Positions 3,057 to 52,133 of a DNA stretch of 52,133 nucleotides are shown here, piece after piece. The stretch covers positions 1 through 52,133 of IMG/VR virus record IMGVR_UViG_3300036791_000029; one strand, written 5' to 3'. Numbering within the stretch: position 1 is the first letter of the stretch; every line of letters begins with the position of its first letter. Under the pieces are notes generated by a model. The model did no database searches. It was not told where the DNA came from and worked only from the letters and a program-made list of their open reading frames with translations. The position numbers and the translations under genes are program-made. The stretch comes from a virus (lineage: Duplodnaviria; Caudoviricetes).

Positions 3057-4065
3057 TTCTGTTCCCCTCTGCATCATTGTAAGCGTCTTTGAAAGCATCT
3101 TCTATTGTATTTCTATCATTCTTAGCATTGCCGTGCCACCACATCATAGCAGCAGCAGCAAATTCATCTTTTATTATATCATCATCAAGTAATCCAGCAA
3201 TACAATACTTAGCTATCCAAACTGTATGCTTATACAACCATTTATGTCTTTCGCCATCATCAACATACTTCATTTCTCTAATAACTTTTTCCTTGGATGC
3301 TATAGCTTGCTTAAATGTAGCTGGATGATATTCTTGTTTGCTATCGTTATCAGTTATAATATGTCTTATATCTGTAAATTGACTTTCACCACCAATCCAT
3401 GTCCACCATTTACTACAAGGATCGCTACACCCTATAAATCTAGGACGCGCGGTATAGATAGGCTGGACCGGCCCAAATAACGCTGTATCTACAACATCTT
3501 TCGCACCAGCAAAATGTTTCTTAAGCGCAATACAACTAACCTTCACACTATTCCACAAAAACAGCCTGATATGAATACCAGGCTTTCGCAAATAACCAGC
3601 ACTAGGAATAGCAAAGGCTTCCACACCACTCAAATTGAGCGCCAGGAGCACACGAGTAGCATCATCCTTCAGATCACCAGATGACACCCCATATCCATCA
3701 ATATCTAATGCGAACCAATTTTGGTTCTGTTCAATAATGGTTGCGCGATCACCCGTCGCACGATCATCATGGAACAATCGTCTCTGCCGCACAGCATTGT
3801 CATCAATAGCAGTGCCGCGTATAACACAGCATTGTGGACGCGCCAGGAGATACTTGATTAGTTCAAACAAATCCTGTAGATGATATACAGGACGATTGAA
3901 GAAATTGTAGTATTTGACATTATCATAAGCAACTTCAGAGGTAGGATATATTGTTTTGCATAATACAAATCTACTACTGTATGACTTACACACAGTAATA
4001 TTATTAGGAGTTATAAAATCACTTGTAGATTTTTCGCCGTCGTTACTATATATAGGGTCCGACAT
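3043..4065 (-). CDS. AEP-superfamily primase(-polymerase) with PriCT-like C-terminus
   Basis: ALDIDG (DxD), SAG..KPGIHIRLF, DTALF..VQPIYTARP, GERH; overlaps helicase; ATG 4065 after GGAGG. Confidence 0.65.
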   Translation of the reverse strand: MSDPIYSNDGEKSTSDFITPNNITVCKSYSSRFVLCKTIYPTSEVAYDNVKYYNFFNRPVYHLQDLFELIKYLLARPQCCVIRGTAIDDNAVRQRRLFHDDRATGDRATIIEQNQNWFALDIDGYGVSSGDLKDDATRVLLALNLSGVEAFAIPSAGYLRKPGIHIRLFLWNSVKVSCIALKKHFAGAKDVVDTALFGPVQPIYTARPRFIGCSDPCSKWWTWIGGESQFTDIRHIITDNDSKQEYHPATFKQAIASKEKVIREMKYVDDGERHKWLYKHTVWIAKYCIAGLLDDDIIKDEFAAAAMMWWHGNAKNDRNTIEDAFKDAYNDAEGNRNGQF

Positions 4066-4820: not shown

Positions 4821-5771
4821 TTAGCGAGGATTATTGTTGACAGCCCAATACTTTGGATTTGGACTGCCATCCTCTAAGGTTTCATTCTCACCCTCATGGT
4901 ACAGAGCAATATAGCCATGGTTCAAGTCCCAATTCCAGTGGTCTAGTCTTGGGCCATTAAACTTTGAACCACTTCTGACGGATGTTGCCTCTGGGTAGTC
5001 CTTGGTTCCGATATACTCAGAATAGTTCATACCATCCCTGTATATATCCCAAGCATAGTAACCCATCACACCTTCAGCACGTGGGTTCTTGTCCACCATT
5101 TTCCTAAGCCGCAAGTCATTGGTCCATTTTGTGGACCGCCTTGGGCCAGGAGCGCGTGGCTCACCATTAATCTTTGTGGACTTTTGCTTTACAGACTTCT
5201 CACCTTTACTGGTTCCCTTAGCATAGAGATACATACCAATTTCGGTGAGCTTAAGGCCCACAATGGTCTTGGGTTCACCACCATACTCGGCAACAGCAAG
5301 ACCGCGCTGAAGGATGTTGCGTTCCGTCCCAACGTCAAAGAAACCTTTCTTGATTTCTTCTGGGATATGATCGAGCGGAATAACAACATCCGTCACACTA
5401 TCAGCAGACTTCAAGATATCCAAACTTAGAAGAATGCCAATAGCTTGCTTCTCACGTTCAGACAAACGACGCGGACCAGTTACGCGTTCTGCGCGTTTGA
5501 CCCGTTCCTTTGCTTCTGCTTCCTCCTGTGCTTTGTGAGTAGCCTCATCAGTCACTTTTGATTCTGGATACTCTGCACCTTCCTTGGGTTGCTCTTCACC
5601 AATTTGGACTGCATAATCCTCATTGGCTTCTGGCGCAGACCCAACTGCATCATGTTCTGCAGTGGGATCTTGGGCGCCAGGAGAATGCCCCGGATTGTAC
5701 GGCACAGGTTGCACGACATGTTCACTCACTGGTTTATTCCTCAGAGTATGTTTACGTGCCCGTTGTGACAT
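4821..5771 (-). CDS. Hypothetical protein, possibly DNA-binding
   Basis: 316-aa ORF; disordered N-terminus, wing-like LKLTEIG, C-terminal KNPRAEG..YRDGMNYSEY segment. Confidence 0.7.
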   Translation of the reverse strand: MSQRARKHTLRNKPVSEHVVQPVPYNPGHSPGAQDPTAEHDAVGSAPEANEDYAVQIGEEQPKEGAEYPESKVTDEATHKAQEEAEAKERVKRAERVTGPRRLSEREKQAIGILLSLDILKSADSVTDVVIPLDHIPEEIKKGFFDVGTERNILQRGLAVAEYGGEPKTIVGLKLTEIGMYLYAKGTSKGEKSVKQKSTKINGEPRAPGPRRSTKWTNDLRLRKMVDKNPRAEGVMGYYAWDIYRDGMNYSEYIGTKDYPEATSVRSGSKFNGPRLDHWNWDLNHGYIALYHEGENETLEDGSPNPKYWAVNNNPR

Positions 5772-5984
5772 ACTATGTTCCCTATGTTATTGTCAAAGAT
5801 CAATGTGAGAGGTATGGCAGTTCCAACTCACCCGAGTAGTCTACTCCACCTCGTGGCCGAGGTCTAGCCCACGACCCAGAAAGATATGCATCAGTAACAA
5901 TTGTGGTATATACGTTTATATATTGATTGATATATGCAATTGATTGATGAAACTAATCGTAACAAATTTGTTTCTTTGGTGGAC

Positions 5985-6013
5985 TAGACGTGTAACTCGA
6001 AATAGGCTATACT
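5985..6013 (+). promoter_or_regulatory. Putative sigma70-like promoter
   Basis: TAGACG-17nt-TATACT; same ACTAGAC/GCTATACT boxes as 10917..10945. Confidence 0.6.
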
Positions 6014-6127
6014 TAGGGACGATGGAACAGAAGCCGTCGGCCTACCCAAGATTGCCTGCTGCAAGAGAAATAACTATATGGTTTGTGATCTTGGTGATCT
6101 TTGTAAACTGTGAATAGGAGACTAAAG

Positions 6128-6877
6128 ATGACACCAAAACTATCGGTTGTCTCTGACAATACGAGTATGCCTCTGTATACAAATATGTGCAAGGCAATAC
6201 TTGAATGTCGTCGTGTAGATGAAGTTGCTAAACTACAAGACGATGTCAAGCGGCAATTGTATGGTCAGCAAGTAAAAGATGGCAATACAATGAAAGCTGC
6301 GCTCAATGAAATATACATTCGCGCTGAGCGCCAGCTAGGTGAATTATTGGCTGCTTTACCAAGAGCACCAACAAGGAGTCGTTACGATACCGGATTAGGT
6401 CGCGACACGCGACTTAATCCGGAGTCAAAACAAAAGGTTATGGCTGACAATGGCATTACTAAAGACAGAGCATCAAAAGCAGAACGCATTGCAAGAATAC
6501 CAAAAGCCGAATTTGAACAAGAAGTAGTTAAGCCCAAAGCCAGTATTAGAAGGTTGGCTGACTATGCAAGAAGCAAAGAACCACCAAAGCCCAAAAAGCC
6601 TGAGCCGAAGTGGTATGATCCTCATCTTGATTCCAAAGTGAGACTTACTGAGGGCCTTGAACGCATAGAACAAGGCCTGAAGATGGCTATACTGGGATTA
6701 AAGATTAAGGATTTGATCCTAGCGCGTATGCAAGACCAGGGCACAGAATTGCCTGAAGTAATGCATAGACTCAATAGGATCAGAAAACATATGGAAGCAC
6801 TGACTTTCATATGTCCTTGCCCATTACGAAATCAGAAGGCAATAACTCAACAAGTCAAGGAGACAATTGATGCCTGA
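6128..6877 (+). CDS. Hypothetical protein resembling the helical N-terminal domain of phage DNA methyltransferases, without an MTase domain
   Basis: ATG 6128 after AGGAG; VDEV...IRAERQLGELL...GITKDRASKAERIARIP..EFE pattern; no SAM-binding or DPPW motif. Confidence 0.6.
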   Translation: MTPKLSVVSDNTSMPLYTNMCKAILECRRVDEVAKLQDDVKRQLYGQQVKDGNTMKAALNEIYIRAERQLGELLAALPRAPTRSRYDTGLGRDTRLNPESKQKVMADNGITKDRASKAERIARIPKAEFEQEVVKPKASIRRLADYARSKEPPKPKKPEPKWYDPHLDSKVRLTEGLERIEQGLKMAILGLKIKDLILARMQDQGTELPEVMHRLNRIRKHMEALTFICPCPLRNQKAITQQVKETIDA

Positions 6878-7376
6878 GTACAATCCATATCGCAAAGTCA
6901 TAGACATGCTTATGCCCAAAATCCAGAATGGAGTTCTGTATCTGGATGAACTTGAAGAGACAATGATGGAGGTTGGGATACTACCATCAGACTACAAGAA
7001 GTATGATGGTATTCCCAAAAGACTTGTAGGCGCAATTGAACGTGATCATGATGAAACGTTCAAAAGAGCTTATGAGTCCTGGAAAAGACATCTCCATCAT
7101 TTTGAGCTTGTCTGTATTGGTGAACGGGCCAGTAGGTTCAAAACTAGGATAGCCTTGAGTTTTGAACCTCTGAAAGAGAATACTCAAGAGAAACAAAGAG
7201 ATGCTGGTGACAAGTATCTCAAAGCATTTCAAAGGCGAGCCAAGGTCATTTCTAGCACCTCAACATTTAATGAAGAGGATGCCAAGGAATTAGACGATTG
7301 GCATAAGCATGCGAAGATTGTACAAGAGAAAGCACAGCAACTAAGAGTCAGATACAATAGACGTAAAATCCAATAG
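6870..7376 (+). CDS. Hypothetical protein
   Basis: ~168-aa ORF, AGGAG RBS, overlaps upstream stop. Confidence 0.75.
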   Translation: MPEYNPYRKVIDMLMPKIQNGVLYLDELEETMMEVGILPSDYKKYDGIPKRLVGAIERDHDETFKRAYESWKRHLHHFELVCIGERASRFKTRIALSFEPLKENTQEKQRDAGDKYLKAFQRRAKVISSTSTFNEEDAKELDDWHKHAKIVQEKAQQLRVRYNRRKIQ

Positions 7377-7387
7377 GGTCTCAAACT

Positions 7388-7416
7388 AGGCTCCTGGCGC
7401 CCAAAAGCGCCAGGAG
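7388..7416. terminator. Hairpin after 6870..7376 made of two inverted octamer copies
   Basis: CTCCTGGCGC-CCAAAA-GCGCCAGGAG 10-bp stem; no clear U tract. Confidence 0.4.
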
Positions 7417-8486
7417 TATCCTTCCAGGATCAAAACCATCAATCATTTAAAAGAGAACATATCCAGAACTACCAATCAGTAGCCTGCGTTACAGATTAAC
7501 AAATGTTTAGCATTTTTGGCCCATAACCCATTGAAATCATTGAGCAGAACGTAACGGGAACAAGCAGGGTACAAACGCGAACGATTGCAGGGGCACTAGG
7601 GTAGTGCTGGGTCAACCCCTAGCGCACGCCTAGCACACATCCTAGGCTCGGGAAAGGGCAGGTCTCAAAAGGTAGCCTAGTCGGCCTGTTTGACCCGCCA
7701 AGGACTGCCGTCTAAAAACAAAGATCCGTCTAAAAATGAAGTCTTTCCCCAAGGACCAAATTGTGTTACCCTAATCCCTAGATCGGTGGACGACAGGAAG
7801 GCCCGATCGACTAGCGTAACAAAATCCTCCCGCGATCTTAGACAGGAGAATAGGACATCTCGGGAAGCCGGAAGGCCCACGCTAGGGCACTTCTAGGCGT
7901 CCCCTAGGCGCGTCTAGGCACCTCCCGATAGGGTAGGCACTAGGCTAGCGTCTAGGCTCTAAGCGCCCATAGGAGAGGCTTCTAAGCCTCTCCGCCAGGG
8001 TAGTCAGGGAAGCGATAAGGGCAGGTGACCGTCAAGGTTGCCTGGCGCGGGAATAGTAGCGAAAGCGAATGGATTTACCCGCCAGCTCAGACCAACTAGT
8101 TGGGTCGCGCTTAGAGCGTTTTGAACCTTGACCTCCAACGCTCACACGTTGAAACGGTATATCAGAAAGCATACGGGAAGCCACTAGAGTGGGCAGGATA
8201 TGCGCCCCTAGTTCGCGCAAGCCGGTATGTGAGTATGGTATATAGTGAATCAGGACTAATCCTTTCAAGGCTGAATACCTGGCGTAGATACGTTTATATC
8301 TACGCTGGCAAAACAGCGCACTGAAAGGATGATCCGTTGTTCCTTTCTAGGGGCAACGATGTATGTAGCCTCTGGCGGGATTGTACATCGTTGTTAATGC
8401 GGCCACGTATATGCATTTGTATATACGCGCTGGTGGGAAGCCCAGAAAACAAAACGCAGACCCAAACCCTAGTAAGGACACTTCAA

Positions 8487-8990
8487 ATGGCTAAGTTGAC
8501 TGCTTCCAAGGTTGCCTCTTTGCGTTCCTCCACAGCGCTGGCTACGCCAGTGTTTCACGTCTATGTTGTGGAGAACACTACTGATGGTGGCCGTTATGTG
8601 TCGGTGCGGAAGAACATTTCCGCCACGGCATTTTGGTCGTTGCTTTGTGTGGGTGCGCGCGATCCTAACTTTGATCAGCCTATCCACAACAGCATCCGTG
8701 TGATGGGTGATCAGAACTCATACCTTGAGGATTCACACCACAAGATCACTCGCGTCGCAACCTATACCTCCAAGACTGAGGCGCAGGTTGTTGCGGCCAA
8801 GATGATCGAGAACAACGCTATGAAGGCACGTGCCTACAACGCTACTCGGCCCAGCGCTGGGGCTTCCGCAGATTTTGAGTGGAAGTCAGAGGCTGAGTCA
8901 GCAGCGATGGTCAAGGCCGCAAAGGCCAAGACCCGCGCGCGCAAGAGCGCAAAGGTGACAGTTCCTGCTACCACAGAGGCTGTTGCCTAA
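8487..8990 (+). CDS. First early gene: degenerate GIY-YIG-like domain with Lys/Ala-rich tail
   Basis: ATG 8487 after TAAGGA; HVYVVENTTDGGRYVS, IHNSIRVMG and AYN echo GIY-YIG motifs; tail KAAKAKTRARKSAK. Confidence 0.6.
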   Translation: MAKLTASKVASLRSSTALATPVFHVYVVENTTDGGRYVSVRKNISATAFWSLLCVGARDPNFDQPIHNSIRVMGDQNSYLEDSHHKITRVATYTSKTEAQVVAAKMIENNAMKARAYNATRPSAGASADFEWKSEAESAAMVKAAKAKTRARKSAKVTVPATTEAVA

Positions 8991-8998
8991 GTCTACAA

Positions 8999-9109
8999 GT
9001 TGGGCGCCAGGAGTATATACGCTTCTGGCGCCCAGCGCCGTAGTGCGATGTGTGTCGCACCCGATGATTCCAAAAGGATGAAACGGCACTAGAAAGGAAT
9101 GGAACAATG
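8999..9109 (+). repeat. Early-cassette leader copy 1 (hairpin + hammerhead + RBS)
   Basis: TTGGGCGCCAGGAG/CTTCTGGCGCCCAG stem; ends CTAGAAAGGAATGGAACAATG. Confidence 0.85.
9037..9087 (+). ncRNA. Candidate type III hammerhead ribozyme (core variant)
   Basis: GCCGU-A-[GUGCGA ugugug UCGCAC]-CCGAUGA-[U UCC aaaa GGA U]-GAA-ACGGC: correct topology and GUA triplet; deviations U4C and a U.U pair at the base of stem II. Confidence 0.65.
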
Positions 9110-9280
9110 GAATACAACATAAAGCTATCTTGGCCGTCATACCAAGATACGCCCATCAAGGCAATAGACGAAATTGCCGATGCCTTCGCTGCCTTTCTCA
9201 AAGGACAATTCAGTATTGAATCCGAATTTGGTTTAACGGCAGAAGGAATCATCTTCACAATCTTGAAGGATGATGTTTGA
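9107..9280 (+). CDS. Small early hypothetical protein (57 aa, not in ORF track)
   Basis: MEYNIKLSWPSY...ILKDDV; strong RBS; TGATG overlap with next gene. Confidence 0.75.
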   Translation: MEYNIKLSWPSYQDTPIKAIDEIADAFAAFLKGQFSIESEFGLTAEGIIFTILKDDV

Positions 9281-9498
9281 TGGGATATGTTTTGGCAACG
9301 GGACATTGCATTTGCTGTGGACAAATCTTTAGCTTCAATCCACATCGAGTGCCGTCCACTTCAGCAATTACTGGTTCTCGCGAACCAGTATGTCTGAACT
9401 GCATGACCATCGTCAACCAGAAGCGAATTGCTGCTGGCGTCGCGCCTCATCCGATATACGATGATGCGTATGAGGCCATCAATGAGGATGAGTTGTAA
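9280..9498 (+). CDS. Small Zn-binding protein
   Basis: CICC...CLNC; translationally coupled start. Confidence 0.75.
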   Translation: MGYVLATGHCICCGQIFSFNPHRVPSTSAITGSREPVCLNCMTIVNQKRIAAGVAPHPIYDDAYEAINEDEL

Positions 9499-9589
9499 GC
9501 AACCTTAACGGAATGAGCGCCAGGAGTAACAAGCTTCTGGCGGCTCATTCCGCTAGCGTTGTGCTAGTCTAGAAAGGAATGGAACAATG
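9496..9589 (+). repeat. Early-cassette leader copy 2
   Basis: GCAACCTTAACGGAATGAGC...GCTCATTCCGCTAGCGTTGTGCTAG then AGAAAGGAATGGAACAATG. Confidence 0.9.
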
Positions 9590-10594
9590 GAAAACTACAG
9601 TCTCACAGACTTGAGTAATGTTTCGTTGGCAAAGATTACGCCAGCAAAATTTCGTGAGATGGCTCTAGCCAAGATGCTGAGTTCTGGACCAGGAATGGAC
9701 ATCAACTATATGCCAACTACAAAAGAGTTGGATGTTATGGTAGATATGCTTGCCACAGCTGTTGCTGCCGGTAGGTTTATTGATTTTGGTTTCTGGCCTA
9801 ACGAATTCATCATAAAGAGCAGCGAAAGGGCATCAAACCTATACTATGAGGGTGCTCTTGGTCATCCGTTTTCGCAACCTTGGGTATTCTTCCATACTTG
9901 GAGCGATCCAAAATTGGATGCTGCCTTTGGTCGTGATCACGACGCTGTTTCTATATACTTGGTGAATCCTTTCCCAGTCGATGGAAAGGCTGTTGCTTGT
10001 GACTTTGAGATCACAGCAATCGAGCCAATGAATGTCCTTGGAAAGCCAATGCTATGTGTTGGTGATCGTGGTGCGCTCTATTGCAAAATGGATCGCCCGC
10101 CTGGAGCGAAGTATGCTTGCTCGATAATTCCGGTCCAGTTTCGTTTTCCTATGCATTTCTGGAATGCATATGCAGACGAAATGGGTAAGGAACATGGAGC
10201 GCAAGCTGCCTTACAAGCGGCAGGTGCTAACATAATGGAGCCTGCGTTCTTGGCGCTTCAAATGCTCAATACTAGAGGCATACCTAAAGAGACGATGCGT
10301 GTTGATGATAGGTTAAATCGGGCACGTATCAAGAACAAAAAGCCACCGATACCACCTTACACAAAAGTGTCGAGCGAGGAATACATCACGACGTTTATGC
10401 GTTCTCCAACAGAGCGTCGTGCTAGCCAAGGTGGAACGCATGCTAGTCCAGTTGCCCATATCCGTATGGGTCATTGGCGGCATTATCAGAGCGGTGAACG
10501 AACGTTCATCAATGATACTCTAGTGAATGCTGATGAGAGTATGCGTAAAATCTTCAAGTCTAATCGTGCTGGGTATATAGTAAAGCAAGGTTGA
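9587..10594 (+). CDS. Early hypothetical protein with C-terminal HASP..H.R.GH.R motif
   Basis: 335-aa ORF; GGTHASPVAHIRMGHWRH basic His-rich segment. Confidence 0.8.
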   Translation: MENYSLTDLSNVSLAKITPAKFREMALAKMLSSGPGMDINYMPTTKELDVMVDMLATAVAAGRFIDFGFWPNEFIIKSSERASNLYYEGALGHPFSQPWVFFHTWSDPKLDAAFGRDHDAVSIYLVNPFPVDGKAVACDFEITAIEPMNVLGKPMLCVGDRGALYCKMDRPPGAKYACSIIPVQFRFPMHFWNAYADEMGKEHGAQAALQAAGANIMEPAFLALQMLNTRGIPKETMRVDDRLNRARIKNKKPPIPPYTKVSSEEYITTFMRSPTERRASQGGTHASPVAHIRMGHWRHYQSGERTFINDTLVNADESMRKIFKSNRAGYIVKQG

Positions 10595-10675
10595 CGGAAT
10601 GAGCGCCAGGAGTAATGACCTGGTTGCTCATTCCGCCAGCGATTATTGCTGGGTCTAGAAAGGAATGGAACAATG
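10582..10675 (+). repeat. Early-cassette leader copy 3
   Basis: TTGACGGAATGAGC...GCTCATTCCGCCAGC...GCTGG and same RBS. Confidence 0.9.
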
Positions 10676-10861
10676 GAGGATTTGCGGTATCACAAATGTG
10701 ATAAAGCAGAACAATTTGCACTAATAGATGCTCGTGGTATCTTTTGTTGCTATGTTTGCGATAAATGCAAAGCAGCAAAGATGACCAAGTATCGTCCAGA
10801 AATATTTACTGATCCGAACTATTGGCACGATGAGCCAATAGATATAGATGATGAAACGTAG
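10673..10861 (+). CDS. Small Cys-rich early protein
   Basis: ATG in the conserved RBS; CCYVCDKC; acidic tail. Confidence 0.75.
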   Translation: MEDLRYHKCDKAEQFALIDARGIFCCYVCDKCKAAKMTKYRPEIFTDPNYWHDEPIDIDDET

Positions 10862-10916
10862 ACACACATCTATAATGTTCCGATAACAAGATAATCTGTT
10901 TGAAGAAACAAGGAAC

Positions 10917-10945
10917 TAGACCAAAAGCCTAGGACGCGCTATACT
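10917..10945 (+). promoter_or_regulatory. Putative sigma70-like promoter inside the early array
   Basis: TAGACC-17nt-TATACT. Confidence 0.55.
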
Positions 10946-11032
10946 ATCGCTTACGGAATGGGCGCCAGGAGTAACATTCTGGTAGCCTATTCCGCCAGCA
11001 ATAGTGCTGGGCTAGAAAGGAATGGAACAATG
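10943..11032 (+). repeat. Early-cassette leader copy 4
   Basis: ACTATCGCTTACGGAATGGGC...GCCTATTCCGCCAGCAATAGTGCTGG and RBS. Confidence 0.9.
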
Positions 11033-11233
11033 GAAAGAAACAATATTGATGCTGCTGAAAGAATCATGCGCGAAAAGCGGTGTAGAATACATTCGTTTTT
11101 TGCAAGTGGTATTGCTCAATACGCGGTCAAAAAGGATCAATTGAGTATATCGCCAAGCTTCCGCAGTATTAAAGAACTGTGTGATTGGGTTGTTCTACAC
11201 CAAAATGCTATTGGAATGGAGGACCCAGAGTAA
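11030..11233 (+). CDS. Small early hypothetical protein
   Basis: MERNNIDAAE... from the conserved RBS. Confidence 0.7.
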   Translation: MERNNIDAAERIMREKRCRIHSFFASGIAQYAVKKDQLSISPSFRSIKELCDWVVLHQNAIGMEDPE

Positions 11234-11571
11234 TGGCGATCATAAAGATCAGTAAGCATCGCAAGTATCAAGGACCCAATGTTGTTGGTGTGAATGTTCC
11301 CAAGACCTGGCAAGGATTAGACAATATATTCTTGCATAGGTCCCAGGTAAAAATCGGCCTGCGACTAGTCAACTATGGCCGACTATACCACGGAACATTG
11401 TGGGAAGTTGTGGAAATCAAAACAGTATCTACTGGCGGCAGAGTGACTAAGGTTGATTCTGTGAAACGTTCAAATGATATTGTTGTATTACTGCGAGTTG
11501 GCAGTAATGAGACAACACAGCTGGGCTTTATCTACTTGTCCTATAGTGCAATATGGAGGACAACTGAGTGA
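11233..11571 (+). CDS. Early hypothetical basic protein
   Basis: TAATG overlap start, MAIIKISK... Confidence 0.7.
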   Translation: MAIIKISKHRKYQGPNVVGVNVPKTWQGLDNIFLHRSQVKIGLRLVNYGRLYHGTLWEVVEIKTVSTGGRVTKVDSVKRSNDIVVLLRVGSNETTQLGFIYLSYSAIWRTTE

Positions 11572-11753
11572 AGAAACCACAGAAGAGACCACCAACATTA
11601 TCAGAGAGATTGAAGAGACTTGAGAGTATTGTCAAGAAACAAGATCGAAAAATCAAAGAATTAGAGAAGAAAGTTGAACACGTATTGGATGAGGATGTAT
11701 CTGCGATACCCAATAATGATAAGTTGAACAGACCTACACAGCATCCTGAATAG
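11568..11753 (+). CDS. Small coiled-coil protein
   Basis: GTGA overlap, GGAGG RBS, heptad pattern. Confidence 0.65.
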   Translation: MKKPQKRPPTLSERLKRLESIVKKQDRKIKELEKKVEHVLDEDVSAIPNNDKLNRPTQHPE

Positions 11754-11844
11754 CAGCCTTGACGGATGGGCGCCAGAAGAACAATACTCCTGGCCGCCTA
11801 TCCGCCAGCGCTGTTGCTGGAACTAGAAAGGAAAAGGAACAATG
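11751..11844 (+). repeat. Early-cassette leader copy 5
   Basis: TAGCAGCCTTGACGGATGGGC...GCCTATCCGCCAGCGCTGTTGCTGG; RBS AGAAAGGAAAAGGAACAATG. Confidence 0.9.
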
Positions 11845-12153
11845 GCAATTGTATGGATACCTATGCATCCACGAGCGCATCCTGATATGCTTGGTTATCT
11901 CCCAACATTCTTACTTGAAAATGATCCTAGACCGGCCAAAGAACAATTCCAAGAAAGATATGTATTTGGTGGCTGGAGTTCATTTGCAGGTTTTGAATTA
12001 ATAGCAAATGACAAATTAAAGTATCCAGGTGATCCACCAATATTGCCGATCTATAGAACATATTTGCGTGATGAAGAAATAACGATGTATGAACATGCGT
12101 GGGTAATGATAAGACAAAAAGATGGAACTTGGGAAGTATCCAGAATGGATTAG
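11842..12153 (+). CDS. Early hypothetical protein
   Basis: 103-aa ORF from the conserved RBS. Confidence 0.8.
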   Translation: MAIVWIPMHPRAHPDMLGYLPTFLLENDPRPAKEQFQERYVFGGWSSFAGFELIANDKLKYPGDPPILPIYRTYLRDEEITMYEHAWVMIRQKDGTWEVSRMD

Positions 12154-12265
12154 CAGTATTGATGGAATATACGAACGTATCTACGTCGCGTATATACGAT
12201 CGTATATTCCACCAGCGCTGCGCTGGAAAGCCTAACTAACTCTGTCTAGAAAGGATGGAACAATG
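12151..12265 (+). repeat. Early-cassette leader copy 6 (apical stem replaced)
   Basis: TAGCAGTATTGATGGAATATACG...CGTATATTCCACCAGCGCTGCGCTGG; lacks the octamer but keeps the pairing. Confidence 0.85.
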
Positions 12266-12505
12266 GACGAAAAGTTCACTTTGATTGTGGAAGGCAAGAT
12301 GTCTCATGACATTACTGCCATAGCACCCCACGATCTAGAGTTGAATGGCCTTACTTGGCACAATGATTCGCCTCCAGATATTGTGGTCATGCATGATCTT
12401 ATACTTGTCAAAGTAGGCAAGTATACTTCGCATGAAAATAGATACCAATACAGGATAGCTGATGTTGCTCATCTTATTGGTGGTAGACTGGAGGCAGTGA
12501 GATGA
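12263..12505 (+). CDS. Early hypothetical protein
   Basis: 80-aa ORF from the conserved RBS. Confidence 0.7.
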   Translation: MDEKFTLIVEGKMSHDITAIAPHDLELNGLTWHNDSPPDIVVMHDLILVKVGKYTSHENRYQYRIADVAHLIGGRLEAVR

Positions 12506-12696
12506 GATGGAGAGAAACCCAGAAGGTGCCATTTAGATTAATACAAACACAATGCTGTGGAACTCAACTCTGTTGGGTAAATCCACGGCTGCCTATGCAT
12601 TGTCCTGAATGTGGTAAGTTTTGTTATCCAGCAGTAAAAGGCTGGGTAACAAATACATTTAACAATGCAATGCTTGTGTATGATGTAGAAAGATAG
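12502..12696 (+). CDS. Zn-ribbon protein
   Basis: CCG...CPECG; ATGA overlap. Confidence 0.7.
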   Translation: MRWRETQKVPFRLIQTQCCGTQLCWVNPRLPMHCPECGKFCYPAVKGWVTNTFNNAMLVYDVER

Positions 12697-12783
12697 CAGT
12701 ATTGACGGAATGGGCGCCAGGAGCAAATACTTCTGGCCGCCTATTCAGCCAGCACTGCGCTGGTGAAAGGAAAAGGAACAATG
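12694..12783 (+). repeat. Early-cassette leader copy 7
   Basis: TAGCAGTATTGACGGAATGGGC...GCCTATTCAGCCAGCACTGCGCTGG and RBS. Confidence 0.9.
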
Positions 12784-13248
12784 GAAAAGAATTATATGGG
12801 ATATGTATATGCATCAGCAGAACGCCATAAAGATACATTTAAGCGATATGAGGCTGGTGAATCTATAGAATCAATTGCCAAGAGTTATGGAGTGGTTCCT
12901 CAAACTATTCAACACCATCTCAAAAATATGGGTATCAAAACTAATTCAGAAACAAAAAGGCGATTGGTTGTATTAGCAAAGCAAAATGGTATTGATGTCG
13001 ATAGATGGCTAAGTATTTTACCAGAGAATATTGCATGGCAACAAATCTATTGGGAACGTCATCAATGCATGTTTAGAGCTGTGAATTTAGGCTTGCCTAT
13101 TAAAACAATTGAACATATATTCAATATATCTAGAGCACGTCTTTATCAACTAAGATTAGAACGTGAAAAAGGATATAGAAAACGACATCAGTCACCTGCT
13201 GAAAGATGGTTTTCATCTAGAAGATATTTGACTGATTTTGTGTCTTGA
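12781..13248 (+). CDS. HTH DNA-binding protein (two HTH-like segments)
   Basis: GESIESIAKSYGVVPQTIQHHL and GLPIKTIEHIFNISRARLYQL. Confidence 0.7.
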   Translation: MEKNYMGYVYASAERHKDTFKRYEAGESIESIAKSYGVVPQTIQHHLKNMGIKTNSETKRRLVVLAKQNGIDVDRWLSILPENIAWQQIYWERHQCMFRAVNLGLPIKTIEHIFNISRARLYQLRLEREKGYRKRHQSPAERWFSSRRYLTDFVS

Positions 13249-31538: not shown

Positions 31539-34355
31539 CTAGTGAATGGTTGGACGTTCTAGTTCTGCTACTCTAGCAGACAGTTCCTTTACTGCATTAA
31601 CTAGAGCAGCAATAATTGGAGTTGTAGCAACACCAAGTGATGGCTCTTCATCTTCTATTTCATCACGACCCAAAGTCATACCGAATGGTGATACTGCCTC
31701 AGGCAATACATCACGTATTTGCTGAGCACCAAAACCTATTTCAATTTTATCTAGTCCCTTCAGCCTGCGGAACTTGATTGGATTAATTTTCATAATTTCT
31801 TTCAGTCCGACATCTGATGATTCAATATCAAATTTAGAACGTTCATCAGAATAGTCTTGATACGGTCCATATCCTCCAACAGTTCCAAGACCATTATAAA
31901 CGCGATTCATAGTAACATCCATCATCCACAAACTGCCATTCGGAGTTATCCAATTTAGATTACCATTACTAGCATTCCAATTCCAATACCAGTTGCCAGC
32001 AAATTGCATAATGCGACCAGCACCACCAGAACCAATAACCATGCTATCATCTGACCATAGATACATAATATTGCCGCGTGCATAGATGGGACCATATGAC
32101 AAGACGTAAGTGCTAGCTTGAATGACGCCTCCAAATATATTTCCCCTGGCTGTTATGGTGCCAGCAGTATCAATAGTAAAATTGATAGTGCCATTCTCAA
32201 CAAATCGCCAGTATCCATCAGCACTGCTGCGACCCATGTAGTAGTTGCCATTATCAGCCACATACATGATGCCTGTGACATTCATAATGCTGTTGGTAGC
32301 GCGTATCCGCCCAGCCGTCATGCCGCCGCTGGCGTTGCTGTCGCCGTCCGCTTGTATGCTACCTGTCGAATGAATATATGCACCTGTCAATGTATTAACA
32401 GAAGTAATATTTCCATAAACCCATAAATTACACGAACCATCTAATGTCATATTCTGACCATTATTAGCGCAATACCAACCACGTAGACCGTCTGAGATAC
32501 GCCACCAATCATACCAACCAGCTTGCCAATTGAAATAGCGGTTGCTGGCATCAGCACTTAATCCAAAGTCAGTGCGGCCCATAGCATAGACGCCAAGACC
32601 GCCAAGTATATTACTGGCAACAGTTAAAACAGAACTAACTGTTAAACTTTGACCAATCGTTACTAATCCAGAAGCTCGATTAATTGATATTGGAGCACCA
32701 AGATAATTACTGGCATCATCATACCTATTAATATTAAAATTGGAACCAGCGTTGCTTCCACTTTCAGCAACACTATCGCCAATTTCAACATCCCAACGCA
32801 AACTAGAGCCAGTATAACTTAAAATTCTCCTGCCATTTCCAGAAGCACTTTGCATTTGAAAAGTAGCAAAACCAGATGTAGCATTGGCGACAAAAGTTGC
32901 ACTAACCGCACTGACGTTAACATTACCACTTAATACACCACCAGTCAAAGGCAAATAAGGACCACCAAGAGGCTGATGGTTATCTACATATTGCTTAGTC
33001 ACAGCCATCAATGCAGAAGTAGGATCAGCATTAAGTAATAATGGTCCTGTTAAAGTTCCACCAGCTAACAATAATACTCTTTGCCACGCAGCATTATAAC
33101 GACCATAAGCAAAACTATCTAATGGTGCTTCTGGAACTTCTCCTGGCGCGCCTTGTGGGCCAACTGGGCCTTGCGGTCCAGTATTACCAACATCACCTTT
33201 TATACCTTGTGGTCCTTGTTGTCCTTGAGGACCAGTATTACCTATTGGTCCTTGCGGTCCAATTGGTCCAACATTACCTTGTGGACCTTGCGGTCCGATT
33301 GGTCCTGGCACTGTGCTGTCTGCGCCTGTAGCACCAATTGGGCCTTGTGGTCCAACATCACCTTGTGGACCTGTAGGACCAGTATTACCTATTGGTCCTT
33401 GCGGTCCAGTATCACCAGTATTACCTATTGGTCCTTGCGGTCCAGTATTACCTGTAGCACCAATTGGACCTTGTGGACCGGATGGGCCCATAGGACCAAC
33501 ATCACCTTGAGCACCAGTATTACCTCTTGGGCCTTGCGGTCCAGTTGGTCCGACTGGACCAGGAACTGTACTTGCCGCACCAGTATCACCTTTTGGTCCT
33601 TGCGGGCCTGGTGGACCTACATCGCCTTGTGGTCCCTGTGGACCAGTTGGGCCTGGTGGTCCTTGAACTCCACTACTAGCTACACTATCAACATAAGTTT
33701 TGGTTGTTGCCTCCATTGGAGAAACAGGAGGTTGCGTTAGCATTAAATGAGATGCTGCAGTAATAATTCCAGGAGCGCGTGCTGAACCTCCTAAAGTAAT
33801 TGATGGAGAGTCAACAGTAAATGCTTGCTGTGCTTGCTGGACTATATTACCATTCTGATCTATAGTTACAGTGCTCTTATCATTACCAGTAACAATATTG
33901 TTATCTTTAGTTATCGTCAAATGAGACTTGTCAAACTTCATTACTACATCGTCAGAATTGCCCACAATACCAGTAGGTTGGCATCCAGGTATAAACACAC
34001 TATCAGAAAGGTCGAACTGTCGAGGATCATCAGGCATTTCGTTTTTGCCATCAAGCCAACCTTCCAAAGATCGTTGCTGAACAGCAAGCATTCCTCCATC
34101 ACCAGGTTGAAGAGGAAATGTCATACTAGCTTTACCACCACCAGAAGCAGTAAAGATAACTGGCACTTCTACAATTTGTGGTGGTTCTAATGGCTCCTCA
34201 CTAGACAACCTTTTAGGCAATACTGGTTTTACAACAGCACGATTTGTTTGTGCATTATAACTAACAATAGTGGCAGGCAAATTGGTATTTAGAGTATTAC
34301 CAAGTTGGACCTCTATTTGCTGTTCGATTAGTTCAGTGAGATCAATTCTAAGCAT
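31539..34355 (-). CDS. Baseplate central spike (Gp138/gpV-like N-terminus) fused to collagen, foldon, fibre and S74 chaperone
   Basis: LPATIVSY...VPVIF...FPLQPGD...[13 protein letters not shown]; ~57 Gly-X-Y; [17 protein letters not shown]; SDERSKFDI...GFGAQQ. Confidence 0.85.
33135..33671 (-). repeat. Collagen-like Gly-X-Y coding repeats
   Basis: Runs of 11, 27 and 19 triplets separated by two STVP interruptions. Confidence 0.95.
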
Positions 34356-49915: not shown

Positions 49916-51303
49916 GACGATAATGCCAAGTAACGTTCATATTGCGATACACCAGCGATACATTCTAGATAGGCACCACTACTGGCGTCAATATAATCAT
50001 CATGATCACCCTCAGGAAAAACAGCCATTTCCTTCAAGTAATCATTCACCCACTGGCCTTCAACTATGTCAATATTACCAGCTTGCCATTGCGCAGATAG
50101 TGGTTCTGCCCTCGTTTCTTTTGGTCCAGTTTCTCTTACTGACTTAGCCTTGAAGCCGGCAAGATGAGAGATGAGACTTGCTGATTGATCCTTTCCAGCC
50201 TGTCCTGGATCTTGTGGCACGACCGTTGTAACTCGTTTATACTTGTTACGATCCTGCCAAGCAGTATTAAGCAATATATCACGAACAATAGAAGCATTAT
50301 GTCTAATGCTAATACCATCAGCAATACATATGCGGCCATTCTCTCTGCGACCCATTAATACTGAAGCTGTAGCACTAGGCGAAGGATTAACTTCACTAGG
50401 TTCTGTGGCAGCCAAATCCCAGCGACGCACCCACATCTTCACATCAGTAGGAACAGCAGGAATAATCTTGGCCATTACTTGAGGGAAATAAGAACCAGCA
50501 CTAGGTCTAATCTTCCAATTACCATGTAACAGACGTTCACGCTCAACTCTAGTCATCATCTCTAGGTTGGCACGATAGTCTGGGTCTTGTTCGTTCAGAA
50601 TAACATTATCTTCTAATGTTGCCGGAATGAATGTAAATGACTTAGGCAACGACGCAGGGAATTTATTGAGTAACTCCTGGCGCGTGTCAGCCCAAAACAT
50701 TTTATCATCAAATCTGACAAAGTAACGAATAATGCCACTTCGTTCTAATATTGGGTAACCAGTATCTTGATCAATCCACCAAGAGACTAGATCAGCAACC
50801 CAAGAGTCAGCATCAGGATTGCAAGTAGCACGTATATACGGTCTAACACCACACATCGAACGATTACGAGACAGCATATACCAAAATTGCTTCTCGGTGA
50901 AGTGAGTAAGCTCATCATATCCAATGAGTGGTATCTGCGAGCCTTGCCAATCCAGCACATCCTTTTCTTGGTTGAGATGGCCAAACGTTATTGTCGATCC
51001 ACTAGGGAAAGACCATGAACGATATGGACTTTGTTTTGGTATACCATCTATACGCACATATATGCCGAAACTTGTATCAAACAAACCACCTTCTGAGGTT
51101 ATTTGTACAGCTTCACGACGGAATATGACTGCTCCAAAGTCACTATTGTCGAGGTGTCGGCATGGTTCTAACAGTAATGCGTATGTTTTGCCGCCTCCGG
51201 CTGCACCTCCATATATGGCTATGTCAGCACTAGTAGACAAGAATTGTTCTTGTGGTCCAGGTTGCGGACCAATATCATTAGTATCATCAAATCCATCATA
51301 CAT
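49912..51303 (-). CDS. terL: Terminase large subunit
   Basis: GGAAGGGKT, IGYDE, ATCNP, WDLAA, HDDYIDA; ORF open to 51324. Confidence 0.95.
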   Translation of the reverse strand: MYDGFDDTNDIGPQPGPQEQFLSTSADIAIYGGAAGGGKTYALLLEPCRHLDNSDFGAVIFRREAVQITSEGGLFDTSFGIYVRIDGIPKQSPYRSWSFPSGSTITFGHLNQEKDVLDWQGSQIPLIGYDELTHFTEKQFWYMLSRNRSMCGVRPYIRATCNPDADSWVADLVSWWIDQDTGYPILERSGIIRYFVRFDDKMFWADTRQELLNKFPASLPKSFTFIPATLEDNVILNEQDPDYRANLEMMTRVERERLLHGNWKIRPSAGSYFPQVMAKIIPAVPTDVKMWVRRWDLAATEPSEVNPSPSATASVLMGRRENGRICIADGISIRHNASIVRDILLNTAWQDRNKYKRVTTVVPQDPGQAGKDQSASLISHLAGFKAKSVRETGPKETRAEPLSAQWQAGNIDIVEGQWVNDYLKEMAVFPEGDHDDYIDASSGAYLECIAGVSQYERYLALSS

Positions 51304-51304
51304 A

Positions 51305-51622
51305 TTATGCCGCTTCCCCATCAATAATTTTGACAGGAGTATTCATGCGGCCATTGTCTGGTAAATATACTTTGACCCTACTAGAACTTTGGTTCGCACT
51401 AGTATCGTCATTAATGTACACTGTTTGACGTGGCTTGCCATATGCGCGATTAGACACAAACTCCATTAGACGAATGCGATCACCATGTGACATAGATGGA
51501 TCAGCAAACATCTCGTCAACTTGGCGAAGGATTGTGGGTGTGCGTTGACGACATTCAGTCATCATTTCGCGCAAGGTATAAATGCGCGCTAGCTCAGTGT
51601 GAGGATCGAAACCATCAGGCAT
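51305..51622 (-). CDS. Putative terminase small subunit
   Basis: Upstream of TerL; identical protein to 111..428. Confidence 0.6.
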   Translation of the reverse strand: MPDGFDPHTELARIYTLREMMTECRQRTPTILRQVDEMFADPSMSHGDRIRLMEFVSNRAYGKPRQTVYINDDTSANQSSSRVKVYLPDNGRMNTPVKIIDGEAA

Positions 51623-51671
51623 TACATTGTGACGTCCACCAGAATAACATTACGTACAAGAGACGTTAGCG

Positions 51672-51700
51672 CGTATATACCATCGTAGTTGCGCAGTCTA
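51672..51700 (-). promoter_or_regulatory. Putative late promoter (right haplotype)
   Basis: TAGACT-17nt-TATACG. Confidence 0.45.
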
Positions 51701-51770
51701 GTCACTAACTTTATTCTCGCGATAAGTTTACCTATTCCTAATTCGTTCTCTATAGTTACTGACGAAACTA

Positions 51771-52133
51771 TCACGTAGATACGTTCGTAGCTACGTTGTT
51801 TTTAGCCTGCGGAACAAACAAATCCTTAAACCAGTCATATATCTCCCATTTATCTTCTGTGAACTTTACAAGTTGTTCAATTTTTATTGGATGCTTAGGC
51901 ACACTTAACCATGTTGACCAATTACCACAACGCAATACTCCAAACTTTGTTATCTCATCGCGATAATCATAAAAGCCAAGAAACAAAAAACAAAAGCCTC
52001 CTGATCGTTGCCACTTAGCTAACCAAGCAGCTTGATCAGCTGTTAGTTCTGAAACTCTAAATGTTGTAGCTCTAAATCTATGTTCTATAACTTTGAGTTC
52101 AAACCATACAATACGCGAGTTGTTGATTTGTAT
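51771..52133 (-). CDS. PD-(D/E)xK nuclease allele, 5'-truncated by window edge
   Basis: Homolog of 778..1239 with IEHRFRAT in place of IQYKFGAS and a different C-terminus. Confidence 0.75.
   Translation of the reverse strand: MQINNSRIVWFELKVIEHRFRATTFRVSELTADQAAWLAKWQRSGGFCFLFLGFYDYRDEITKFGVLRCGNWSTWLSVPKHPIKIEQLVKFTEDKWEIYDWFKDLFVPQAKNNVATNVST

Follow-up and report, generated by a model that had tools for sequence, protein, structure and literature searches.

A core-variant homolog of the type III hammerhead ribozyme, predicted to cut between early genes of a soil phage

Introduction

Hammerhead and twister ribozymes have been known to lie between phage genes since 2011, and it is established chemistry that the ends made by hammerheads alter the stability and the translation of the RNAs that bear them. 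In the parts of Perreault et al. (PMC3088659) that deal with phages, clustered hammerheads are described as flanking prophage and phage genes and are proposed to cut long transcripts into gene-length mRNAs, and the haloviruses HF1 and HF2 are described as carrying a hammerhead (HHphage) 13 nt upstream of the start codon of an early helicase gene. The biological role of such intergenic ribozymes is still called unresolved in reviews (PMC6765202).

The same source, in its section 13, includes U4 in the consensus by which matches were disqualified, any core mutation leading to rejection. Its discussion states that U4C "considerably decreases activity in vitro" and also cites a viroid with a natural U4C hammerhead that stays infectious, its activity in vivo being sufficient (Ambros & Flores 1998, cited in PMC3088659). 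Its section 8 presents the U10.1-U11.1 mismatch as active in natural hammerheads and as the mispair supporting the highest activity. Comprehensive mutagenesis of a type III hammerhead showed that changing one or two letters of the CUGA U-turn leaves little activity, except for a C:G swap (PMC9901934).

Here we analyse a stretch of 52,133 nt (the window), an IMG/VR viral record that is about 94% complete and has soil metagenomes as its source. An earlier note on this DNA had pointed to a variant type III hammerhead at 9037-9087, just upstream of an RBS. What we describe is a new copy of a known lineage: the literature already describes phage intergenic ribozymes and the interchange of hammerhead and twister, as well as the U.U mismatch and a natural U4C.

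Results

The window encodes a DNA polymerase, a helicase, a thymidylate synthase, a portal protein, a large terminase and a head protease, and small early genes occupy its + strand from about 6 to 24 kb. The element lies in this early block, between the gene 8487-8990, which is without a PHROG family, and a 57-aa ORF (Table 1). Homologs of the former were found by tblastn in five related loci (L013, L014, L015/L021, L017 and L018); a homolog of the 57-aa ORF was absent from the related loci searched. The transcript had been presented earlier as the first early mRNA, a claim that finds no support: upstream of gene 8487-8990, the + strand carries two ORFs (6110-7376), a GCGCCAGGAG hairpin and a 1.1-kb ORF-free stretch. 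That stretch (7377-8486), which has no ORF longer than about 80 aa, contains many short repeats of the CTAGGC/CCTAGG type and CGTATATACG-like palindromes at 8283-8307 and 8406-8430. Scans for consensus promoters and terminators gave results no better than shuffles.

Two further observations concern the record as a whole. Its ends (1-1106 and 51198-52133) repeat each other with 94-96% identity only, not 100%, and so do not form a clean terminal repeat; they may be the join of two strain variants. Inside the ORF 31539-34355, positions 33149-33662 (- strand) hold long repeats with a 9-nt period; read on the - strand they give Gly-X-Y, the predicted collagen-like tract of a 938-aa late protein.

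Table 1. Positions of the features described in the window and in related phage loci.
Feature	Position	Strand	Remarks
Upstream gene	8487..8990	+	167 aa from ATG 8487; stop 8988-8990
Hairpin	8999..9036	+	16 bp, bears GCGCCAGGAG; predicted to form a protective 3' end on the upstream product
Hammerhead homolog	9037-9087	+	GCCG-UA-GUGCGAU-GUGU-GUCGCAC-CCGAUGA-U-UCC-AAAA-GGA-U-GAAA-CGGC
Stem III	9037-9041 with 9083-9087	+	GCCGU/ACGGC, U16.1-A15.1 (U9041-A9083) included
H17	A9042	+	predicted cut between 9042 and 9043
Stem-loop I	9043-9049 with 9054-9060	+	7 bp GUGCGAU/GUCGCAC, loop GUGU; matches subclass consensus
Core strand C3-A9	9061-9067	+	CCGAUGA; C9062 in place of consensus U4
Stem-loop II	9068-9079	+	U9068.U9079 (U10.1.U11.1) mismatch, then 3 bp UCC/GGA, loop AAAA
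G12 A13 A14 A15.1 (GAAA)	9080-9083	+	stem III 3' strand CGGC follows, to 9087
Cassette leader CTAGAAAGGAATGGAACAATG	9089..9109	+	Shine-Dalgarno AAGGA, ATG at 9107; conserved
Downstream 57-aa ORF	9107..9280	+	first gene of the predicted 3' cleavage product
GCGCCAGGAG / CTCCTGGCGC hairpins	1237, 5671, 7392-7417, 9001, 9514, 10600, 10959, 11766, 12711, 16244, 35473		
L013	gene 3060-3431; ribozyme 3505-3559		gene homologous to 8487-8990; ribozyme 76 bits
L014	gene 6942-7268; ribozyme 7404-7458		gene homologous to 8487-8990; ribozyme 65.5 bits
L015/L021	gene 6300-6776; ribozyme 6815-6869		gene homologous to 8487-8990; ribozyme 66.2 bits
Twister matches in cassette slots	L014 7859-7921; L015 7091-7165, 7705-7765, 9371-9435; L016 463-521		
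Twister matches, P5 and P1-like together	L018 2108-2166, 782-838, 1117-1171		

When the region 8990-9110 was folded, the MFE and centroid structures both consisted of the hammerhead three-way junction and the 8999-9036 hairpin, with an energy of -50.4 kcal/mol (z -5.4) that 0 of 200 shuffles equalled; the RBS and the ATG at 9107 were unpaired in the MFE fold. The stems, the core strands, the type III order and the predicted site that the earlier note had described were all found where it had placed them. The three helices, the loops closing stems I and II and the open stem III of a type III hammerhead are seen in the MFE fold and in the covariation reported below. G12, A13 and A14 are present together with the A15.1-U16.1 pair, and A9042 at H17 is not a G. 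When the other core strand is compared with C3 U4 G5 A6 N7 G8 A9, six of the seven positions fit, position 4 being a C, and the Watson-Crick pair 10.1-11.1, usually G-C, is replaced by U9068.U9079. These two departures from the consensus, already pointed out in the earlier note, are both real.

A relaxed hammerhead descriptor gave one match in the window, at 9037-9087, and matched none of 100 shuffled windows. At the gathering score, an Rfam cmscan of the entire window returned 0 matches, Twister-P5 included. At E<=10, Rfam on 8900-9200 reported no hammerhead and noise only (CRISPR-DR25, snoRNAs, HOTTIP), and on 5600-13000 at E<=1 the single match was miRNA noise. The earlier note had said that a strict search could miss the element, and it is missed at both settings. 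Rfam at E<=10 also missed the hammerhead with a canonical CUGAUGA core at 8868-8923 of the relative L015; its silence thus reflects the models and not the C4 change.

We then looked for other copies in IMG/VR with the pattern CYGATGATTCCNAAAGGATGAAA, which covers only the core, stem II and GAAA, stems I and III not being part of it. It was present in 84 viral stretches that correspond to 66 distinct sequences, window included: 59 are type III, 2 are cut by the end of the locus (L046, L067), and the remaining 5 (L030, L035, L039, L040, L079) we read as type I. Alignment A2 was made from 58 type III copies, the window being excluded. Standard pairs fill 98.5% of its 870 cells, compared with 32-46% in slid controls, and both sides change in 10 of the 15 pairs (6 of 7 in stem I, which is 100% paired, and 4 of 5 in stem III), the stem II pairs being invariant by construction. 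The covariation score was reached by 0 of 500 shuffles.

These copies define a subclass with a stem II of the form U-UCC-NAAA-GGA-U, a 7-bp stem I with a GNGU loop and a short stem III; conservation extends to loop I GNGU with its U-R closing pair and to the NAAA of loop II. Among the 57 U4 copies, H17 is A in 49, U in 6, C in 2 and never G, and the commonest cleavage-site triplet is GUA (35/57). The U10.1.U11.1 mismatch is found in 58 of 58 copies of A2 and is kept in the alignment of close relatives (A4); in the close relatives found with the covariance model described below, stem II itself covaries (UCC/GGA, CCC/GGG, CGC/GCG, UGC/GCA) and U10.1.U11.1 is unchanged. The earlier note had listed this mismatch as a departure of the window copy: it is real there, but not special to it, being invariant in the subclass and published as an active natural variant. 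The idea of a defect peculiar to the window copy was thus rejected in favour of a subclass-wide trait.

With the same pattern, species-representative genomes gave 58 stretches and 60 distinct matches, 55 of which parse as type III; according to the record titles they come mostly from Patescibacteria MAGs (Saccharibacteria, Paceibacterota/Parcubacteria). The genome contigs (L120-L177) sometimes hold two subclass copies in a span of a few hundred bases (L143, L173, L174). The subclass, which Rfam does not report, is well defined and numbers over 100 distinct natural sequences from phages and from genomes of Patescibacteria. A literal text search for the stem II and core strings found no ribozyme paper, and none for CUGAUGAUUCC, the matches to DNA strings being unrelated primers. 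Since figures and supplements lie outside a text search, this result does not make the subclass an unpublished one, and the supplementary alignments of Perreault et al. may already contain it.

A covariance model (R1) was built from 58 homologs, leaving the window out. On the window, it aligned to 9035-9089 over its full length (1-55) with 70.5 bits (E 5.6e-17), the next best match having 12.5 bits. The homologs had been gathered by a pattern derived from the core and stem II of the window copy itself, and the fit of these two parts to R1 is by construction; what counts as independent evidence is therefore how well stems I and III, loop I and H17 fit. The window copy has the stem II U-NNN-NAAA-NNN-U, the 7-bp stem I and the GNGU loop of the subclass. 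We take 9037-9087 to be a genuine type III hammerhead homolog, on the grounds of the MFE fold, the score against a model made without it and the orthologs in the same slot described below.

The surroundings of the element are also those of the subclass. A same-strand ORF ends at a median of 34 nt upstream in 51 of 70 copies, the 44 nt upstream fold at -8 kcal/mol or better and abut the ribozyme in 45 of 68, and an ORF of at least 40 codons begins at a median of 21.5 nt downstream in 60 of 70. In the window, the 44 nt upstream of the hammerhead fold at -31 kcal/mol (z -8.1) and the ATG is found 19 nt downstream. The norm of the subclass is thus a stop codon, a hairpin and the hammerhead, with a start codon some 20 nt further on, and the window conforms to it.

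Relatives of this locus were not reached by the usual routes: blastn of 8300-10600 against the phage collection gave no match, a related-locus search with the 8487-8990 protein gave none, and one with the 9587-10594 protein gave only 3 distant loci. They were reached instead through the RBS leader. Its 19-nt form GAAAGGAATGGAACAATGG is present in 4 exact copies in the window (9092, 9572, 10658, 11015), for about 0.01 expected by chance, and hairpins precede each of them. A search of IMG/VR with the leader led to 12 stretches from related phages, whose early genes are shared at 30-65% protein identity in a shuffled order. In L013, L014 and L015/L021, the homolog of gene 8487-8990 is directly followed by a U4 hammerhead of the subclass (Table 1), and in L016 a U4 copy comes after the same upstream hairpin arm. 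The aligned relatives and the window share one layout, made of a stop codon, the GCGCCAGGAG hairpin, the hammerhead and CTAGAAAGGAATGGAACAATG. The closest relatives' elements have U4 in all six cases, and their stems I and III differ from those of the window by compensated changes. As all six have U4, the C4 of the window copy is a derived state of this conserved ribozyme. We regard the window element, from its sequence and place, as the ortholog of canonical-core hammerheads that occupy the same intercistronic slot in related soil phages.

Other cassette slots of these relatives hold twister ribozymes. Eleven Twister-P5 matches at the Rfam gathering score were found in such slots of L014, L015, L016, L018, L020 and L021, and two twister-P1-like matches below the gathering score in L018. 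Rfam on 1330-1600 of L017 gave nothing, twister-like strings being seen there by eye. Upstream of the leader at about 947 in L016, a canonical type I hammerhead can also be read by eye. A hammerhead or a twister filling the same cassette position is a clear case of slot conservation and agrees with the idea that the cutting counts, whichever motif performs it.

In four other cassettes of the window (9508-9571, 10594-10657, 10953-11014, 12705-12767), the slot of the hammerhead is occupied by a conserved double hairpin. It has an outer stem CGGAAUGRGCG...CGCCUAUUCCG with a variable inside, then CCAGC-N5-GCUGG and then the RBS leader, and its 3' arm is CCUAUUCC, a sequence complementary to GGAAUGG in the RBS. 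Further copies were seen in L014, L015, L017, L018 and L019. No Rfam family matched the double-hairpin cassettes, and the double hairpin may be an RNA of a type yet to be classified, with a part in processing or regulation. The GCGCCAGGAG / CTCCTGGCGC hairpins recur at gene ends, with the motif in either arm, in the window and in related phages, and none is followed by a U-run.

The change of U4 to C at 9062 is the only departure special to the window copy. When positions 4-6 of the pattern were freed and the rest kept fixed, the search of IMG/VR gave the same 84 stretches, in which position 4 was only U or C and positions 5 and 6 were invariant. When G8, A9, G12, A13 and A14 were freed, no single variant appeared in IMG/VR; the 4 extra matches differed at 4-5 of the 5 positions and had no stems. 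This comparison of C4 with seven other core positions holds for IMG/VR and takes no account of kinship.

Besides the window, C4 is present in 2 of 65 distinct IMG/VR sequences, namely L028 (type III, identical to L069) and L040, which we read as type I from its longer copy L113, and in 2 of 60 distinct matches of the species genomes, that is, in about 3% of the copies of these two sets, a small count. Metagenome contigs gave 14 stretches with C4, which reduce to 11 distinct type III sequences plus one of type I. Of the 195 cells in the 13 C4 type III copies, window included, 99% are paired, and covariation is seen in 10 of the 15 pairs. Compensatory differences separate the stems I and III of L103 and L108, both of which have C4, and their relative L098 has U4. 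The pair 1.1-2.1 is G-C or C-G in 9 of 13 C4 copies compared with 15 of 57 U4 copies (Fisher p 0.007, kinship ignored), which is a lead only. The subclass offers a natural experiment on core plasticity, U4 to C being the sole core substitution seen and recurring with the structure intact.

A contig from a second soil metagenome, one base different from the window over 8439-9800, also has C at 9062; as this is a nearly identical strain, it lends weak support to the C. An assembly error at 9062 was rejected on the strength of this same letter, with the reservation that the strain is nearly identical and that one of the two runs may be the source. The runs listed for this sequence are two sets of DNA contigs, with no RNA run among them.

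Discussion

We propose the following scheme for the processing of the early transcript. The + strand RNA would fold into the three-way junction during its synthesis and cleave itself at the step from A9042 to G9043. An upstream RNA with gene 8487-8990 would then end in the 8999-9036 hairpin followed by GCCGUA with a 2',3'-cyclic phosphate, and the downstream RNA would have a 5'-OH, stem-loops I and II, the free leader CTAGAAAGGAAUGGAACAAUG and, behind it, the 57-aa ORF and later cassettes. Stem III, with its 5 bp, would be short enough for both products to part. Such a cut would uncouple the stability and the translation of the neighbouring cistrons, and the new RNA ends would be expected to act on both in this phage. 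The idea that the 8999-9036 hairpin forms the 3' end of the upstream RNA had been put forward in the earlier note; it fits the architecture of the subclass and its stable upstream folds abutting the ribozyme (45/68).

The window element is predicted to cut after A9042 still, probably, if possibly slowly, since U4 to C would lower the rate and probably not abolish cutting. We lean towards the reading that it self-cleaves there at a useful rate. Homology, structure, covariation, the conserved place and the recurrence of C4 are observed, whereas cleavage, the RNA ends and their effects on the mRNAs are inferred. By the strict published consensus, C4 disqualifies a match unless it is shown to be active, and we have therefore filed the element as a core-variant hammerhead homolog and not among the proven active ones.

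The reading most opposed to cleavage keeps the homology and gives up the catalysis: U4 to C would have crippled a true hammerhead, leaving a relic, or an element whose fold would only space or stabilise what lies from the hairpin to the RBS, in a transcript that stays uncut at this site. We hold this to be quite conceivable, if on the doubtful side. U4 is a nucleotide of the consensus core and is present in all six copies of close relatives, the discussion of PMC3088659 gives U4C as lowering activity in vitro considerably, the U-turn mutants reported in PMC9901934 are low in activity in a type III hammerhead, and the window's other cassettes use plain hairpins with no detectable ribozyme. A relic would nevertheless have to account for the company that C4 keeps. 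It is the only variant among 8 core positions scanned in IMG/VR, three collections together contain at least 15 distinct copies that have it and whose stems are unbroken and covary, and it persists across diverged orthologs with compensatory stem changes (L103 versus L108). In the window copy itself, the other core nucleotides and the three stems are all intact, and the natural U4C hammerhead of the viroid cited in PMC3088659 works in vivo. The C4 of the window could all the same be a recent decay. An opposite view of the change, in which C4 is a selected, rate-tuned "slow" state of the hammerhead that arose repeatedly in the phage/CPR subclass as the sole core change tolerated and is not decay, is on balance unlikely. 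On this view a stronger G-C pair at 1.1-2.1 might offset the change in part, and how many early mRNAs stay joined and how many are separated would depend on incomplete cleavage.

Two other readings leave out the hammerhead function or the hammerhead altogether. The fold could be non-catalytic, either a recognition site for a protein or an RNase or a device of translational control in which AUUCC of stem II (9067-9071) pairs with GGAAU of the RBS (9096-9100). These strings are indeed complementary, as is the double-hairpin arm CCUAUUCC of the neighbouring cassettes to the RBS. The MFE and centroid folds retain the hammerhead and leave the RBS unpaired, for which reason masking of the RBS by stem II was rejected; the same stem II occurs in copies whose leaders have a very different Shine-Dalgarno or none, and the pattern of conservation (CUGAUGA, GAAA, an H17 that is never G) is that of catalytic hammerheads. 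We consider a non-catalytic role very improbable. A resemblance by mere chance, for which one could invoke the lack of any Rfam match and the two departures from the textbook core, is hardly credible and was rejected, given the 70.5 bits against a model made without the window, the relaxed descriptor that matches 0 of 100 shuffles and the orthologous canonical copies that related phages hold in the same slot.

The preferred reading, a core-variant hammerhead that still cuts, can be set against the systems described so far. With the type III hammerhead (RF00008) the element shares the three-way junction, the closed stems I and II, the open stem III, and C3, G5, A6, N7, G8, A9, G12, A13, A14, the A15.1-U16.1 pair and an A at H17; it differs by C for U4, by U.U for G10.1-C11.1 and by a stem II of only 3 standard pairs. 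Twister-P5 (RF02684) has an unrelated fold and catalytic core, but takes in the relatives the same cassette place as the hammerhead of the window (hairpin, ribozyme, CTAGAAAGGAATGGAACAATG) and presumably does the same job. As in the phage clusters and HHphage, insofar as PMC3088659 describes them, the element lies between cistrons on the sense strand, close to the start codon that follows, and its neighbours are small early genes that differ in identity from one relative to another. Unlike the clusters, the window has a single hammerhead and plain hairpins in its other cassettes, and the slot of the relatives holds a hammerhead or a twister. The natural U10.1-U11.1 hammerheads of section 8 of PMC3088659 likewise open stem II with U.U, which is invariant in the subclass of the window. 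The viroid U4C hammerhead, as cited there, carries the same core substitution, but in an RNA replicon and not in a phage mRNA, and within the single phage/CPR subclass studied here C4 is found again and again, in many independent copies.
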